The position numbers and the translations under genes are program-made. A DNA stretch of 64,000 nt, taken from the NCBI GenBank assembly GCA_025929585.1, contig JAICPY010000001.1, forward strand, positions 29,802 through 93,801, in the 5' to 3' direction. Below the pieces are notes generated by a model. The model worked only from the letters and a program-made list of their open reading frames with translations. It had not been told where the DNA came from and ran no database searches. This stretch comes from Steroidobacter sp. (GTDB lineage Bacteria; Pseudomonadota; Gammaproteobacteria; Steroidobacterales; Steroidobacteraceae). The first letter of the stretch is position 1. Every line of letters starts with the position of its first letter. Shown here one piece after another: positions 5,900 to 26,493 of the stretch.

Positions 5900-5908
5900 A
5901 GGAATGAA

Positions 5909-6054
5909 GCGGTTAGCGGTTAGCGGTTAGCGGTTGGTTTAGACGCGGAGTACGAGCCGGCTTACCGCGGGCAAAGCGACGTGCACCTGGGGCAACGCTG
6001 TGTATCTCGAAGCATGACGCATTCATTCTGTTCTCCGAACTAACCGCTAACCGT
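5909..6054. repeat. Inverted 7-mer tandem array, GCGGTTA type
   Basis: Four units at 5909-5936; two TAACCG(C/T) units at 6041-6054. Confidence 0.9.
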
Positions 6055-10784: not shown

Positions 10785-11864
10785 TCATTCGACCGCGTCC
10801 ACGGCGAGCTTCGCGCTCAGCCCGATCGACTCGATCACACGGTCGGCAAGCGCAGCGCCGTCGGTGATTGCGTTGAAGGCCGGCACGCCGAACTGATCAC
10901 GAATGATATTCACGCCGACCGCATTGTCCGTCGCAGGTCCGGTCACCACCGAAGGTTCGATGCCGAACTTCTCGCGTAACAGCTTGACTCCGCCCCAAGC
11001 GGCGACTGGATCGTTCGCGGACAGGACGACTGAAGTCAATGCGGTGCGAATGTCGGGAGAAGAAAGAATCGCTTCCACCCCATAGGCTCCGAGGATTCCA
11101 TCGCCCAACTCGAACACGATGACATCGGGTTCGCCTTGTGACATCTCGCTGAGCAACGCGCGCGTAATCGCCGCGCCGTTCTTCGCAGTCGTCGTGACGA
11201 CACCGAGGTCCGTGAAGATCATGCTGCGTCGCGCGCCGGCATCTTCCATCGCGAGAATGTCACGTCGCAGCGAAACGCCGGTTGCCTTGAACGCATGCAC
11301 GTTCAAGCCGCGATGACGCATCCGGGAGACGATTGCGCACGCGGCCGCGGTCTTGCCGGCTTCCATGCAAGTGCCCGCCAACGCTACGACCGGTACACCT
11401 CTGGTGTTCAGCGTCGCGTTGAAGTCCAACCGCTGATAACCGACGCGGGCAGGAACCCCGATGCGTTCGCCGAGATAGGGAAACTGCAACACGACACCAA
11501 TGACGCGTGCGTCGAAAGGACGGCCTTTTTCCGGGTTCACCGAATCGACGATCCCGAGCACCCCGCCGATGTTGAGGACTTGAATGATGTCGCCTTCCTT
11601 CACCGACTCGGGAAGGTGACCCGAATAGCCGAAGAGCGCCTGACGATGTCCCAATGCGCCGACGATGATGTCTCCTTTGGACACTTTCGCCATCCGCCCG
11701 CTGGTCAGCTCGAGTGTGTTGTACGTGGACTTGTTGTTTAGAACCTCGGCAACGAGCACCACGCCCTCTTCGCACGGAATATCCGTGGTGGCGACGCGTA
11801 ATTCTCGGCTCAGGTTCAACGCCTGAGTGATGGACGCGACTTTGTCGACAACGACGGTTTTCAT
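10785..11864 (-). CDS. DUF1611-family P-loop-like protein (DgcN N-acyltransferase-related), function unassigned
   Basis: 359 aa from MKTVVVDK, motif AGTCMEAGKT, FKATG, ELGDGILG; sits between argG and argC. Family assignment by motif recognition. Confidence 0.75.
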   Translation of the reverse strand: MKTVVVDKVASITQALNLSRELRVATTDIPCEEGVVLVAEVLNNKSTYNTLELTSGRMAKVSKGDIIVGALGHRQALFGYSGHLPESVKEGDIIQVLNIGGVLGIVDSVNPEKGRPFDARVIGVVLQFPYLGERIGVPARVGYQRLDFNATLNTRGVPVVALAGTCMEAGKTAAACAIVSRMRHRGLNVHAFKATGVSLRRDILAMEDAGARRSMIFTDLGVVTTTAKNGAAITRALLSEMSQGEPDVIVFELGDGILGAYGVEAILSSPDIRTALTSVVLSANDPVAAWGGVKLLREKFGIEPSVVTGPATDNAVGVNIIRDQFGVPAFNAITDGAALADRVIESIGLSAKLAVDAVE

Positions 11865-11872
11865 GATGGCGA

Positions 11873-11908
11873 GTGATGAACGTGATGCAAGTGATGAAGG
11901 TGATGGCG
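11873..11908. repeat. Single-arm 9-mer array GTGATG-NNN
   Basis: Four units between the argG stop and the DUF1611 start. Confidence 0.85.
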
Positions 11909-11917
11909 GAAAGGCAC

Positions 11918-13138
11918 TTAGTTCTTTCCTGCGCGTGTCCAGAACATGCTGGGCAAGCTGACCATCTTGGAAAAGCCGAGCGCATCGGCGGCGGTCCATT
12001 CTCCGGCCGCTTCGCCGTAAACGCCTTTGGATGCAGCCATGATCGAGAAAGGCGAGGTGACCCCTTCGACGAACGCATTGCCTGGCCGGTAGAGCACCTT
12101 CACTTCTCCGGTAACGCGCGATTGCGAAGCGACAAACAGCGCCTCGATGTCACGGCACACTGGATCCAAGTGCTGACCTTCATGAACGAGATCGCCGTAA
12201 GGACCTGCGAGCATCTCCTTGATTCGCTGCTGCCGGCCCGTCATGACGAGCTTTTCCAATTCACGGTGAGCGTTGATCAGCACCTCCGCCGCTGGTGCCT
12301 CGAAGGCGACGCGGCCTTTCGTGCCGATGATCGTATCGCCCAAGTGAATTCCGCGGCCGACGCCGAATTTTGCACCGATCGCTTCGATCTGCTCGATCAG
12401 CGTCACCGTATCGAGCTTCGTTCCATCCAAACTGACGGGCACGCCGTCCTGAAACCCGATAGTGTGCGACTCGGGCGCTTGCGGCTTGGTGAATGCATCT
12501 TTGGACAGTACCCACGCGTGTTCGGGAATGCTGCCATCGGAGGTCAGCGTTTCCTTTCCACCGATCGTCACGCCCCACAGTCCTCGATTTACTGAATATG
12601 CGGCGCCATACGGCGGAATCGGCAGCTTGCGCTCTTCCAGATAGTTGAGCTGCTCGGGTCGCTTGAATGCTCTGTCGCGCACCGGCGCAAGAATCGTGAG
12701 CTCGGGCGCGAGTGTCCGAAGCGCAACCTCGAATCGCACTTGGTCGTTGCCGGCCGCGGTGCAGCCATGTGCGACGACCTTTGTGCCAATCTTGCGCGCG
12801 TATTCCGCGATCGTCTGGGCTTGCATGACCCGTTCGGCACCCACGCACAAAGGATACATCTGACCGCGTTTGACGTTACCGATGATGAGGTACTTGATGA
12901 CCTGATCGAAGTACGCCTTTCGTGCGTCGATCTGCACATGATCCTTCGCGCCCAGCTCGCGTGCGCGCTGTGCCAATACGCGCGTAGCTTCTTCATCGAT
13001 ACCGCCGGTGTCGACTGTCACAGTGATGATGGGCCGGCCGTAATTCGCACTTAGCCATGGAACGAGGAACGAGGTATCGAGCCCGCCCGAAAAGGCCAAG
13101 AGAATGGGTTCGTTGCCGGCGGGAAGTTGGTCGGTCAT
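11918..13138 (-). CDS. argG: Argininosuccinate synthase
   Basis: AFSGGLDTS, AHGCTAAGNDQVRFE, GIKG-like IIGTKGRVAFEAPAA. Confidence 0.97.
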   Translation of the reverse strand: MTDQLPAGNEPILLAFSGGLDTSFLVPWLSANYGRPIITVTVDTGGIDEEATRVLAQRARELGAKDHVQIDARKAYFDQVIKYLIIGNVKRGQMYPLCVGAERVMQAQTIAEYARKIGTKVVAHGCTAAGNDQVRFEVALRTLAPELTILAPVRDRAFKRPEQLNYLEERKLPIPPYGAAYSVNRGLWGVTIGGKETLTSDGSIPEHAWVLSKDAFTKPQAPESHTIGFQDGVPVSLDGTKLDTVTLIEQIEAIGAKFGVGRGIHLGDTIIGTKGRVAFEAPAAEVLINAHRELEKLVMTGRQQRIKEMLAGPYGDLVHEGQHLDPVCRDIEALFVASQSRVTGEVKVLYRPGNAFVEGVTSPFSIMAASKGVYGEAAGEWTAADALGFSKMVSLPSMFWTRAGKN

Positions 13139-22591: not shown

Positions 22592-22722
22592 GGCAATAGG
22601 GAATAGGGGAAAGGGGATGGTCAGAGAAGAATGAGATCTCGAGGCTGAACGGAACGTGAGCAGCAAGGTGAATCCTCGAGAGTCTGACGACCCGCGAGTC
22701 ACTAGTCACGAGCCGCGATCCT
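22592..22722. repeat. Array pair with non-matching arms
   Basis: GG(G/C)(A/G)A(T/A)A x4 then GTCAGA; TCTGAC then GACCCGC/GAGTCAC-type units. Confidence 0.75.
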
Positions 22723-23680
22723 ATCTCTTCGGCGCGCGCCACAGCTTCACTCCGGGCTCCTCGCGCAGCGGCACACGAGCCCCTTCGTTGTACCAATCCT
22801 CGATCAGCCGGAACGAAATCGAATGGGTGATGGGCAGTGCGACATTGCCGGCGGCAATCTGTTCGCGCGTCAACCAGCGTGCGTCTTCGAGCTCCGCATC
22901 GGCGAGTGTGATCTCGACGCTGCTCGCACGAGCGGTAAAGCCCAACATCAGCGACGAGGGGAACGGCCACGGCTGAGAGGAGTGATAGTCGACAAAGTCG
23001 ACATCAACCCCGGTTTCTTCCGCAACTTCTCGAATAACGGCGTCTTCGAGACTTTCACCCGGCTCGACGAACCCCGCAATCGTCGAATATCTACCCGCCG
23101 GCCAACTAGCCTGTCGGCCCAGAAGCACTCGCTCGCCATCCGTGATCAACACGATGATTGCCGGATCGATGCGCGGAAACACCTGTTCACCGCAGACTGG
23201 ATTGGTACATTGGCGAACGTGACCGCCTTGCATGGCGCGCGTGGGCGTGCCGCATCGGCCGCAGAATCGGTGCCGATCCCGCCAATGAAGCATGGCGCGC
23301 GCATAGGCAAGAAGCCCGGCTTCCTCTGTCGGAAGTTCCCCAGCGATGCCGCGCAAGTCATGCGCTTCCACGGCTTCCTCGAAGCCAGGCAGCTCGGGTG
23401 TGGTGAATGCCACCGCAAAGCAGGTGTGTCGATGGAATTCGCCCAACAGCACGACTTCCTCGGCTTCAACTGGCATGAATCTGCGCACGTCCGAGACCAA
23501 CAGGGCTTGCAGCGACTCGCCCACATTTCTCACGAGGCTCTGATTACGCCATACCGGTACGAATAGCGTATTCGGATCCTCCAACGCTGTCCGCCACAAG
23601 GCCTCGTCTTTGCGCCAGTGCGCTAAACGATCGATGTAGTTCCCGGCGAGCAGATTTCCATGCGAGCGGAGCCTTGTCAT
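22721..23680 (-). CDS. nudC: NAD(+)/NADH diphosphatase
   Basis: Zinc finger (FCGRCG...CTNPVC), FPRIDPAIIV, Nudix box GFVEPGESLEDAVIREVAEETG, SQPWPFPSSLM. Confidence 0.96.
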   Translation of the reverse strand: MTRLRSHGNLLAGNYIDRLAHWRKDEALWRTALEDPNTLFVPVWRNQSLVRNVGESLQALLVSDVRRFMPVEAEEVVLLGEFHRHTCFAVAFTTPELPGFEEAVEAHDLRGIAGELPTEEAGLLAYARAMLHWRDRHRFCGRCGTPTRAMQGGHVRQCTNPVCGEQVFPRIDPAIIVLITDGERVLLGRQASWPAGRYSTIAGFVEPGESLEDAVIREVAEETGVDVDFVDYHSSQPWPFPSSLMLGFTARASSVEITLADAELEDARWLTREQIAAGNVALPITHSISFRLIEDWYNEGARVPLREEPGVKLWRAPKR

Positions 23681-23711
23681 GCCCGCAGTTTAGGGCCTGC
23701 ACACACATATT

Positions 23712-24362
23712 TCATGAGCAGGTCCCAACTACGGGAATGGGTGAGTGCATCCGAATCTCTCTGACACGACTCAGCGTCGAGCGGCGAGGGGCGTTTTTGG
23801 TTTGGCGGCGGCGGCCTATTTTACCCGCAGCCACACTCTTCAGATGGCAGGCGGGGCAAGGCCGCTGCAGCACGGTGCTGCGGTCGTACAAAAAGTGACC
23901 TTCGCATTGCCGACAGCGCAAGGTGCGCAAGCCGGTCTTGCGACACAAAATATGTAACAAGAACCACGCGTGTTCGAAGGTCAATACGCTAGGCCGTAGA
24001 AGCTGGATGTGGGTCTCGTACGCATCGCAGAACCGATCGCCGTAATGAATGGACCCGGGCGTCGTCGCTGCGCCGTCGAGCAAACCTAGTGCCGCGAACA
24101 CGCTCGCGAGTAAGGAAGCCTCGAATTGCACCTTGGCGTTGCGCGTAAAGAACGACACTTGCCTAGGCGACTTGCCCCGATGGCGGCGCATCGGAATCGC
24201 GGGCATGTGGCTGGCATATGTTTGATACAACCGCCGGATGCGATCGTCCGTCAGGCCAGTGCACGCCCGGATCGTGCAGGTGCGCGCCTCGTGGCGAATC
24301 ATTCGCAGCGCTAAGTCGTGGCGCTGGCGATCGTCGAAATAGCGTTCGTTGCTGATGTGCAT
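23712..24362 (-). CDS. FlhC-like transcriptional activator
   Basis: LALRMIRHEAR...TGLTDDRIRRLY, AYETH, FEHAWFLL and C4 zinc site CRQC...CPAC align by eye with FlhC; RBS AAGGAG. Confidence 0.75.
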   Translation of the reverse strand: MHISNERYFDDRQRHDLALRMIRHEARTCTIRACTGLTDDRIRRLYQTYASHMPAIPMRRHRGKSPRQVSFFTRNAKVQFEASLLASVFAALGLLDGAATTPGSIHYGDRFCDAYETHIQLLRPSVLTFEHAWFLLHILCRKTGLRTLRCRQCEGHFLYDRSTVLQRPCPACHLKSVAAGKIGRRRQTKNAPRRSTLSRVREIRMHSPIPVVGTCS

Positions 24363-24561
24363 GGACTACTCCTTGTCCGTTGTGGTTGGTCCGTTGTGGC
24401 CCTGTCTGTTGTAATTTGGCTGCCGTGCTCACGCGCTCCGTGCGTGGGATTCGAAGCTCGTTCCGAAGGACCGAGCGCCGAAGCGCAGTGTGCTGGAAAT
24501 TGACGGCGGCGTGAAGCCCCGGATAAGCTCACCGGGCGTTATCGTTGCAAGGAAGCAGCTC

Positions 24562-25272
24562 ATGACCAGCAGAATCACGGACGATTCTCGTCCCTCGCTC
24601 GCGCCCGTTCTTCGCCTCGACCTGCTCGATTGTCTACATGGCTTGAATGCAGACTATCTCGAGCTATTGGCGGCAGAGTACAAGTTCGGTACTTGTGCGG
24701 CCCAACTCCAATATTTTCCGCAGAGATTACACGCCACTATCGCCAGCTTGACCGGAGAGGAGCGGTTGCGTATCGCGCGTACGCCGTATTCGCTCTTCTC
24801 GTTGCGCTTCGTTGATGTGCGATTCTGGAGCACAGTTTGCCGCCCGACCAACGTGCCACTGGATGTGCGCTATTCGCCTCGCTGCAGCCATTCGTTGGAA
24901 GGGCCATTCTGTGAGATGGCATTGATCCAGGCGTGGCAAACCGCGCGAGCATTCCCCTTGGCAGCGCGGCTGATGTACTCGATGGGCGAGCAGGTTCGCG
25001 ACTGTTTTCAAGCAATGCCGCTGTGGCAGGTCAGGCGTTTGGCAATCGATCATCCCTCGCTCCTGATGCCGCGCTGGCCAACGAACGCCGGATTCTGGCC
25101 CGATTTGCTCGCCTTCTCGCTCAAGAAAGATCTCGCGCGCTTGACCGCGGTGCAACTGTTGGGAACTCAGCTCGTCGCGGCGGAGATCACTCGCGGAAAT
25201 GAGGTTGGCGCGAATGGCCAGAAAGCTTCAGTGAGTCAGGGCAGGCCCTCGGTGAAGGAGTGTGGAGGATGA
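24562..25272 (+). CDS. Protein with two FlhD-like helical repeats
   Basis: LHGLNADYLELLA...LTGEERLRIARTPYSLFSLRF and ALIQAWQTAR...AARLMYSM...MPLWQVRRLA...LLMPRW both resemble FlhD; divergent from the FlhC-like gene; RBS AAGGAAG. Confidence 0.6.
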   Translation: MTSRITDDSRPSLAPVLRLDLLDCLHGLNADYLELLAAEYKFGTCAAQLQYFPQRLHATIASLTGEERLRIARTPYSLFSLRFVDVRFWSTVCRPTNVPLDVRYSPRCSHSLEGPFCEMALIQAWQTARAFPLAARLMYSMGEQVRDCFQAMPLWQVRRLAIDHPSLLMPRWPTNAGFWPDLLAFSLKKDLARLTAVQLLGTQLVAAEITRGNEVGANGQKASVSQGRPSVKECGG

Positions 25273-25302: not shown

Positions 25303-26493
25303 CTATTTGTTATGGCGCTGCGAGCTACGCGAGCGCAGTGTGCTTCCGCGTGCGAGTGCGTCCTTGCCGAATTTCGCTCGGATGCCATCAATCGTTGCAT
25401 CCAGATGCCGGTCTCGCTGCGCTTCGGGTGAGGGGAAGAGCTCCAGCTGAGGGAGCAGATTCAAGTCGCGAGCTGCTACTCCCAAGAGCCGAACTGCAGC
25501 ACGCGGCTGTTCCCTGCGCCATTCATCCAGTAATCGAGCTGCGGCATCGGCGATCGGTCGAGTTTGTTGAGTAACGGGCTGAAGACGAGATTGTCGCGTG
25601 TAGGTCTTGAAGTCCTTGCGCCGGATCTTCACGACGATGAGTCCCGCGAGCCATCCTTGCGATCTCAAGCGCGTCGCGGTGCGTTCGGCAAGTCGCATCA
25701 GTTCATCGTGCAATTGCGCCTCGCCGATGATGTCTTCATCGAAGGTTTCTTCGGAGGAGATCTGCTTTTCGTCCCATTCCGCGATCACGGGGCGATCATC
25801 GATTCCCGCGGCGCGCGCTTTGATCTGGCTAACGTAACGACCGAAGACGGGCCGAAGCATGGCATCGGAGGCGGTGCGTAAATCTTTGAGCGTACGGATT
25901 CCGATCCGCTCGAGTTGTGGCGCGGTCTTGTTGCCGATGCCGAACAATTTTCGGATCGTCAGCGGATCGAGCAGCGCGCTGACCTCGGAGGCAGGCACGA
26001 TGACCAAACCATCCGGTTTGCGCAGATCGGAAGCGATCTTCGCGACCAGTTTATTGGGCGCGACGCCCACCGATGCGGTGACGCCGGTGCGCTCGCGAAT
26101 CCGCGCTTTGATGGATCTTGCGATCGACTCCGCGCTGCCCAAGGCTCGTTCGCTTTGCGTGACATCCAAGAACGCCTCGTCCAGCGACAGCCCTTCGACG
26201 ATCGGTGTGAACTCGTGAAAGATCGTAAAGACGATGCTGGATATGGCTTTATAGCGATCGAACCGCGGAGCTACACATACCGCATGCGGACACCGCTGTA
26301 GCGCCTCTCGCATCGGCATCGCCGAATGCACGCCGAAACGCCGCACCTCGTAGCTTGCCGCGGCGACGACACCCCGCCCGCCCAATCCACCGACGATCAA
26401 AGGTTTGCCCTTCAACTCCGGATTGTCGAGCGCCTCGACCGACGCGTAGAAGGCGTCCATGTCGACGTGGAGGATCGAGCGGTTATTCATCAA
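25303..26493 (-). CDS. dinB: DNA polymerase IV (Y family)
   Basis: ILHVDMDAFYASVE, SYEVRRFGVHSAMP, SLDEAFLD, SDLRKPDG. Confidence 0.97.
   Translation of the reverse strand: MMNNRSILHVDMDAFYASVEALDNPELKGKPLIVGGLGGRGVVAAASYEVRRFGVHSAMPMREALQRCPHAVCVAPRFDRYKAISSIVFTIFHEFTPIVEGLSLDEAFLDVTQSERALGSAESIARSIKARIRERTGVTASVGVAPNKLVAKIASDLRKPDGLVIVPASEVSALLDPLTIRKLFGIGNKTAPQLERIGIRTLKDLRTASDAMLRPVFGRYVSQIKARAAGIDDRPVIAEWDEKQISSEETFDEDIIGEAQLHDELMRLAERTATRLRSQGWLAGLIVVKIRRKDFKTYTRQSRLQPVTQQTRPIADAAARLLDEWRREQPRAAVRLLGVAARDLNLLPQLELFPSPEAQRDRHLDATIDGIRAKFGKDALARGSTLRSRSSQRHNK

Follow-up and report, generated by a model that had tools for sequence, protein, structure and literature searches.

Transcription activators of the FlhDC type are known in two settings, the control of flagella in Beta- and Gammaproteobacteria and the control of transfer in the ICEs and plasmids of enteric and vibrio bacteria. 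In the flagellar complex FlhD4C2 (E. coli/Salmonella, 2AVU and 1G8E; Cupriavidus necator, 8J56) two subunit types are combined; FlhD is a protein of 116 aa that dimerises, and the E. coli genes form a flhD-flhC operon. The FlhC and FlhD families also include activators without a flagellar role, AcaCD, SetCD and SgaCD, which are carried by IncC plasmids, SXT/R391 ICEs and SGI1, where they are found next to tra genes. They are restricted to elements of Enterobacteriaceae and Vibrionaceae, and the known non-flagellar relatives of FlhDC are all located on ICEs, plasmids or genomic islands (PMC4542580). Furthermore, AcaD (22.8 kDa) co-purifies with AcaC, and promoter activation needs both proteins (PMC4207636). 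No paper on FlhDC-like genes in Steroidobacter, or on chromosomal non-flagellar relatives, was found in the literature searched.

In this work, an FlhC-like gene and an FlhD-like gene were analysed in a 64,000-nucleotide stretch of Steroidobacter sp. DNA (the window, 64 kb in full; Table 1). On balance, we consider it probable that their products are the subunits (C and D) of a heteromeric transcription activator of the FlhDC/AcaCD type, which forms a separate, chromosomally fixed branch. The activator reading is based on homology, on the universal adjacency of the two genes and on the precedent of AcaCD. The initial annotation had described the FlhC-like gene on the minus strand and the FlhD-like gene on the plus strand as divergent, 200 bp apart and enclosed by nudC and dinB, and the open reading frames are indeed arranged in this way. 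The distance of 200 bp between the start codons (24362 and 24562) follows from placing the D start at ATG 24562. The open reading frame of the D gene was listed as 24490-25272(+), but the start conserved among homologues is ATG 24562, and from the alignment this is the true start, as it is preceded by a conserved ribosome-binding site, and the GTG at 24490 falls within a conserved block read as a promoter. It was also correctly noted that the divergent arrangement is unusual: the genes of E. coli flhDC, like acaD-acaC of the IncC plasmid pSN254, are co-directional.

Table 1. Features of the flhC-like/flhD-like locus, in positions of the 64 kb window.
Feature	Position	Strand	Description	Basis
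nudC	22721..23680	(-)	NADH pyrophosphatase type Nudix hydrolase	Pfam NUDIX-like, Zn_ribbon_NUD, NUDIX
flhC-like gene, C subunit	23712..24362	(-)	216 aa	ORF listing, Pfam, PDB
C4 zinc ribbon of the C subunit	23847-23915	(-)	C150, C153, C169, C172; C-terminal	
Variable part of the divergent intergenic region	24363..24486		flhC-like 5' leader	read from sequence
Conserved putative promoter block of the flhD-like gene	24487..24529	(+)		alignment of 41 intergenic regions
AGTGTGC box	24487-24493	(+)	part of the promoter block	
Putative -35, TTGACG	24500-24505	(+)	part of the promoter block	
Putative weak -10, TAAGCT	24524-24529	(+)	part of the promoter block	
Conserved ribosome-binding site, AAGGAAG	24549-24555	(+)	downstream of the promoter block	
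flhD-like gene, D subunit	24562..25272	(+)	236 aa; double-length single chain	profile, AF2
First FlhD-like domain	24598..24843	(+)	residues about 13-94	hmmsearch alignment to FlhD
Second FlhD-like domain (predicted)	24898..25218	(+)	residues about 113-219; PRWPTNxxFWPDL and long C-terminal helix	
dinB	25303-26493	(-)	IMS domains	Pfam

The surroundings of the pair are those of an ordinary chromosome. The 40 larger open reading frames of the window were annotated with Pfam, and there was no match for two of them, the FlhD-like partner and 10785-11999. Among the names assigned were polA, an arginine operon with argR, tamAB, TANGO2, a fadE-like ACAD and mdh, together with otsA, mscS, an mla-like system, RND efflux and others. 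Flagellar, chemotaxis and conjugation genes were not found among these 40 reading frames, in agreement with the earlier statement that the pair has no flagellar or conjugative context. Pfam annotation of the 64 kb window also gave no integrase, tra or rep genes near the pair, and the GC content across the locus is flat.

The C subunit matched the Pfam family FlhC (PF05280) at 34.3 bits (gathering score 27, E 2.5e-8) over profile positions 9-167 of 173, and in the PDB it matched C. necator FlhC (8j56_C) at E 3e-4 over residues 8-183. Its four cysteines C150, C153, C169 and C172 align with the zinc ligands C137/C140/C157/C160 of E. coli FlhC; in an alignment of 120 homologues and two true FlhCs, their conservation is 95% or more. 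The N-terminal part contains the helical region RHDLALRMIRHEARTCTIRxCTGLTDDRIRRLY, and 2123 homologues of the subunit were found. Judged by its sequence, the C subunit thus belongs to the FlhC family and has kept its C4 zinc ribbon intact, and the FlhC-like assignment with a C4 zinc site made in the initial annotation is borne out by the Pfam score above the gathering score and by the cysteines aligned to E. coli FlhC. The domain span and the C4 zinc site are common to this protein and the C subunit of FlhD4C2. On the other hand, the similarity to flagellar FlhC is very low, with 34.4 bits against the NCBIfam FlhC equivalog NF009365, for which the cut-off is 216.

The D protein of the window gave no match in Pfam or NCBIfam when it was searched alone. 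We found 94 homologues (41-68% identity), of which about a third carry a precomputed PF05247 assignment, and a profile of the full-length D protein (A1) was built from 40 homologues. In the PDB this profile matched FlhD only (8j56_A, E 4.3e-6; 5hxg_B, E 0.0098), in both cases within profile positions 17-110, i.e. in the N-terminal half. Pfam FlhD was matched weakly by six of the 40 homologues, and relatives do not exceed about 16 bits on PF05247 (gathering score 27). The protein had been called FlhD-like; this stands at the profile level (PDB FlhD, E 4.3e-6) and does not stand for the single sequence, which is without a Pfam match, and the protein is moreover twice as long as FlhD.

The first FlhD-like domain aligned by hmmsearch to residues 4-98 of 8j56_A and to residues 7-86 of 5hxg_B, and its alignment with FlhD reached E 7.4e-5 in hhalign. 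In three relatives (P0086, P0094 and P0420) the N half is also matched by Pfam FlhD. In the second domain, the motif PRWPTNxxFWPDL is invariant, and the motif order of the C half (...AAR..YAM....V..RLA..PLWQVRRIA......LLMPRWP...) has a counterpart in FlhD (...AMFRLG...E.A..L..L...Q..KLA....LVC.FRFD...). The N and C halves of the D protein aligned with each other over 55 columns in the same motif register (hhalign E 0.014). The C half was also made into a profile of its own (A2; window and 35 loci), and a search of this profile against all 177,635 PDB sequences with E up to 10 again gave FlhD as the sole match (8j56_A, E 0.022; chain residues 21-105 aligned to profile 17-101). A distant member (P0489) matches Pfam FlhD in its C half, at residues 130-210. 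The alignment of the C half to an FlhD profile by hhalign was not significant (E 0.37), though in register over 86 columns; this FlhD profile is thin, with the E. coli FlhD homologues listed (120 of 411) being all enterobacterial and at least 80% identical.

Structure prediction points in the same direction. The AF2 model of the full-length D protein has a pLDDT of 85.3 and a pTM of 0.79, with pLDDT 86-97 in the C half; when the C half was modelled alone, the overall pLDDT was 65.6 (45-85 over the same residues) and the pTM 0.47. This drop fits two domains that pack together as FlhD monomers do in the dimer. By Foldseek, the C-half model (pLDDT 65.6) matched FlhD chains from five PDB entries with probability 0.6-0.9, TM-scores (normalised to target) of 0.42-0.66 and rmsd of 1.4-4.3 A, at E above 1, whereas all non-FlhD matches of this model had an rmsd of about 10-30 A. 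The full D model matched 1g8e_A (probability 0.92, target-normalised TM-score 0.68, rmsd 2.8 A) and 1g8e_B (TM-score 0.77), in both cases with E above 1. Foldseek gave no significant E-value for this small helical fold, so the consistency of the FlhD matches alone was used. According to these models, the D subunit would share the FlhD fold (Foldseek E above 1), and it also shares the motifs LNxxYLxL ... (F/Y)xLxFxD with FlhD. Individually, the tests of the second domain are weak (E 0.022, E 0.042, Foldseek E above 1, half-model pLDDT 65.6), and it is their combination that makes a tandem FlhD-FlhD chain the best reading. The D subunit is therefore best read as a single chain with two predicted tandem FlhD-like domains. 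The initial annotation did not mention the tandem double-FlhD architecture.

A 236-aa tandem D subunit differs from the dimerising FlhD of the flagellar complex, which is a single domain of about 105-120 aa, and resembles AcaD. AcaD of the IncC plasmid pSN254 (L052:47369-47977, 202 aa) matched Pfam FlhD at 31.6 bits in two stretches, so a double D subunit is common to the locus and the mobile-element branch, in both cases paired with a zinc-ribbon C subunit. However, the window pair has no BLAST-level similarity to the AcaD system, and profile A1 aligned with AcaD only at E 0.25 in hhalign. The HMM of the C-subunit family scored 31.3 bits on C. necator FlhC, 17.9 bits on E. coli FlhC, and 11.5 and 10.5 bits on two pieces of AcaC. 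From these comparisons, the pair appears about equally remote from the flagellar and the mobile-element kinds.

The GTDB species genomes were scanned with profile A1, which gave 40 loci, all in Steroidobacteraceae or relatives. They include S. agaridevorans, S. flavus, S. gossypii, Peristeroidobacter agariperforans and soli, and a MAG of S. denitrificans. In nearly all of the 40 loci, the order TamA-TANGO2-NudC-FlhC(-) <-> D(+)-DinB(-)-ACAD(-) was found by tblastn; it extends as TamB-TamA-TANGO2-NudC-FlhC <-> D-DinB-ACAD and also occurs on two long metagenome contigs. The FlhC-like gene adjoins the D gene in 49 of 49 loci and is divergent from it in 48. In the one exception (L039), the D gene has been inverted together with its promoter, so that D precedes C by 52 nt in the canonical flhD-flhC order. 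Four members with 24-30% identity to the window D protein keep the core nudC <- flhC-like <-> D unchanged, although the right flank differs, an ABC transporter replacing dinB. A fifth distant member is without nudC and retains the divergent FlhC-like gene at 32% identity. The family reaches further still, as the search with the D profile gave 1097 clusters (50% identity) at E up to 1e-3 and 584 at E up to 1e-10; among the best 150 D clusters, 129 have lengths of 195-300 aa.

The constancy of the pair bears on whether the two proteins are partners at all. The D protein could instead be an unrelated helical protein whose similarity to FlhD is due to chance, the FlhC-like protein acting alone or with another partner. 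The missing Pfam match of the window D protein and the non-significant Foldseek E-values would fit this explanation. Against it, FlhD is the top or only PDB match of the full-length profile and, independently, of the C-half profile; in addition, adjacency to an FlhC-like gene is universal in the D loci, and the inverted D gene of L039 stands directly upstream of the flhC-like gene in canonical order. We therefore regard a chance resemblance as very improbable.

The same layout in cultured and uncultured Steroidobacteraceae, and in the members at 24-30% identity, indicates a vertically inherited core locus and not a mobile element. Comparison of sequences showed a core chromosomal locus whose synteny is kept in Steroidobacteraceae as well as in uncultured relatives at a greater distance. 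In this it differs from AcaCD, SetCD and SgaCD, which belong to mobile elements, and it occurs in another order of bacteria. It is scarcely credible that the pair is the remnant of an integrated mobile element, that is, a transfer activator of the SetCD/AcaCD type left behind or domesticated. The double-FlhD D subunit shared with AcaD would agree with such an origin, as would the exclusive location of the known non-flagellar relatives on ICEs, plasmids or genomic islands (PMC4542580). However, the housekeeping flanks recur at loci down to 24-30% identity, the GC content is flat, no integrase, tra or rep gene was found nearby, tblastn with both window proteins gave no match in 72,556 plasmids, viral contigs held no relatives of the pair, and the hhalign comparison with AcaD remained at the E 0.25 given above. 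A domestication may have taken place long ago, at the root of the order, in which case the pair would now be a core gene pair. The syntenic core status of the locus is an observation that the initial annotation did not contain.

A more serious alternative is that the pair is the flagellar master regulator of this lineage, a highly diverged functional counterpart of FlhD4C2 that turns on the polar-flagellum genes although it is not linked to them. In several Betaproteobacteria, polar flagella are under the control of FlhDC, and a flagellar master regulator can be encoded apart from the flagellar genes. Motility by a polar flagellum is found in most cultured Steroidobacter species, among them S. 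denitrificans, S. flavus and S. cummioxidans, and since no target of the pair was identified, a flagellar role is possible. The homology to FlhC and FlhD is in accordance with it, and so is the HMM of the C subunit, whose highest score (31.3 bits) was for a flagellar FlhC from a betaproteobacterium. Moreover, in a distant member (L047) cheW and an MCP gene lie at a distance of 8 kb, but these represent an isolated insertion and not a flagellar cluster. No flagellar genes were found in the 64 kb window or within 6-10 kb on either side in about 50 loci; unlike the flagellar genes, the pair lacks a mot/che/flh neighbourhood, and its flhC-like gene is coupled to nudC instead. The cut-off of the NCBIfam FlhC equivalog is missed by a wide margin. 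Furthermore, S. agaridevorans SA29-B and agariperforans KA5-B, which are described as non-motile, have intact and highly conserved copies of the two genes; non-motility in the laboratory is no proof of absent flagellar genes. Taking these points together, we consider the flagellar reading doubtful, and we estimate that the regulon would be chromosomal and not purely flagellar.

The preferred reading, a separate chromosomal activator of the FlhDC/AcaCD type, can be given a possible mechanism. Within the D chain, the two FlhD-like domains would pack together and mimic the FlhD homodimer. From homology and adjacency, the complex would be C2(D-D)2, equivalent to FlhD4C2, and it would bind DNA through the C subunit and activate sigma-70 promoters. 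As the subunits would be expressed from two separate promoters, both of which need to be on, their arrangement would amount to AND logic. Tentatively, we hypothesize that the locus represents a third FlhDC branch, a core chromosomal regulator across Steroidobacterales, which are abundant in soil, C2(D-D)2 in composition with a single-chain FlhD pseudo-dimer and with a non-flagellar regulon, in which the link between the C subunit and NudC (NADH hydrolysis, removal of the NAD cap from RNA) is one of function and not of transcription alone. If this wider and less certain proposal were true, redox or NAD status would be tied to the activator via the coupling with NudC.

Both protein families are known, as is a double D subunit of the AcaD type; new are the core, order-wide chromosomal locus, the divergent promoters and the coupling of the C subunit with nudC. 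The locus stands for a large, unstudied and vertically inherited branch of about 1,100 clusters (50% identity), which soil metagenomes commonly contain. It also indicates that the double-FlhD design seen in AcaD extends beyond mobile elements. The D subunit would hard-wire the FlhD dimer in one chain, and the gene layout is unlike that of the known kinds, so the branch offers a natural test of how the geometry of the FlhD dimer and the subunit stoichiometry matter in such regulators. In addition, it opens a way to study gene regulation in Steroidobacteraceae, a family with degraders of steroids, agar and rubber. If the regulon were flagellar, the pair would be a new class of polar-flagellum master regulator in a gammaproteobacterial order.

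The intergenic region between the two genes consists of two parts of unequal conservation. The part on the flhC-like side (24363..24486) is poorly conserved among loci; in the window, it contains a ribosome-binding site AAGGAG and a direct repeat, TCCGTTGTGG x2 (24377-24400), and no promoter of the flhC-like gene was located. The part on the side of the D gene holds the promoter block, whose consensus in the 41 aligned intergenic regions is tAGTGTGC, 4-6 nt, aATTGAC, about 17 nt with GAAGCC, and a TTTAAT-like hexamer, followed by the ribosome-binding site GCAAGGAAGC and then ATG. In more distant members the intergenic sequences differ. The block pattern occurs once in the window, against 0.01 occurrences expected, and once per locus across 33 loci, always at the D promoter and never elsewhere in the flanks. 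As a possible operator, the AGTGTGC...TTGAC block was thus not found at other sites of the window or in the flanks of the 33 loci, and because it is present only at the D gene's own promoter, it yields no regulon. A generic scan for promoters and terminators returned nothing at its thresholds, so the promoter assignment is one that we infer: the block is read as a putative sigma-70 promoter with an upstream box.

On the other side of the locus, the flhC-like gene is closely followed by nudC. In the window, 31 nt separate the stop codon of the flhC-like gene from the start of nudC; the median over 49 loci is 13 nt, and in three loci the two genes overlap by 4 nt. Because of these short gaps and 4-nt overlaps, an operon is likely, and the flhC-like gene and nudC are probably co-transcribed, with nudC as the second gene. 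The coupling of the two genes was absent from the initial annotation. A contig of run X26, for which the library type is uncertain, spans the flhC-like-nudC junction (23411-24245). The RNA-seq contigs are assembled and therefore show presence, not transcript ends; in two RNA-seq studies, soil metatranscriptome contigs match the D gene at 98-99% identity, starting at 24551 or 24555.

Two separate stretches of AcaD, encoded on the IncC plasmid pSN254 (L052), match Pfam FlhD, so this mobile-element relative of the D gene (the double-length flhD-like gene) is a tandem double FlhD as well. No mention of this double make-up was found in the papers examined. The acaC region of this pSN254 record does not form a single open frame but reads as two pieces that overlap and lie in different frames; the gene table of the plasmid has no CDS entry across it. 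In two distant members (L051 and L044), palindromic boxes of the CCATATATGG type are repeated in the intergenic region between the divergent genes; they represent candidate operator sites and are unlike the core group's AGTGTGC block. A short direct repeat lies in the window upstream of the flhC-like coding sequence, and an ORF within the arginine operon gave no Pfam match at E values up to 1e-5. The coordinates of all these features are listed below.

One Steroidobacter MAG (L039) has the D gene, together with its promoter block, flipped relative to all the genes around them. The block reads AGTGAGC...ATTGAT, with two mismatches to the consensus, and the flhD-like gene is followed 52 nt on by the flhC-like gene, which is the canonical flhD-flhC order. 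This arrangement may be either a true inversion or a misassembly. The right flank of the pair tolerates insertions, since in one relative (L003) a toxin-antitoxin pair of the Gp49/HTH_37 (HigBA-like) type is inserted between dinB and the D gene. Within 10 kb of the cheW and MCP genes of a distant relative (L047), an isolated pair inserted between ACAD and mdh, there were no further chemotaxis or flagellar genes.

Coordinates of the features described in the window and in related loci
Feature	Locus	Position	Remark
ORF in arginine operon	window	10785-11999	404 aa
Direct repeat TCCGTTGTGG	window	24377-24400	two copies, spacing 4 nt; within flhC-like 5' leader
acaD	L052	47369-47977	
acaC region	L052	47902-48524	
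CCATATATGG-type boxes	L051	3668-3971	three copies
CCATATATGG-type boxes	L044	about 5900-6000	
Region with flipped D gene and promoter block	L039	5750-7440	
Toxin-antitoxin pair	L003	10885-11579	
cheW and MCP pair	L047	18214-20556	same stretch as L053:9386-11728
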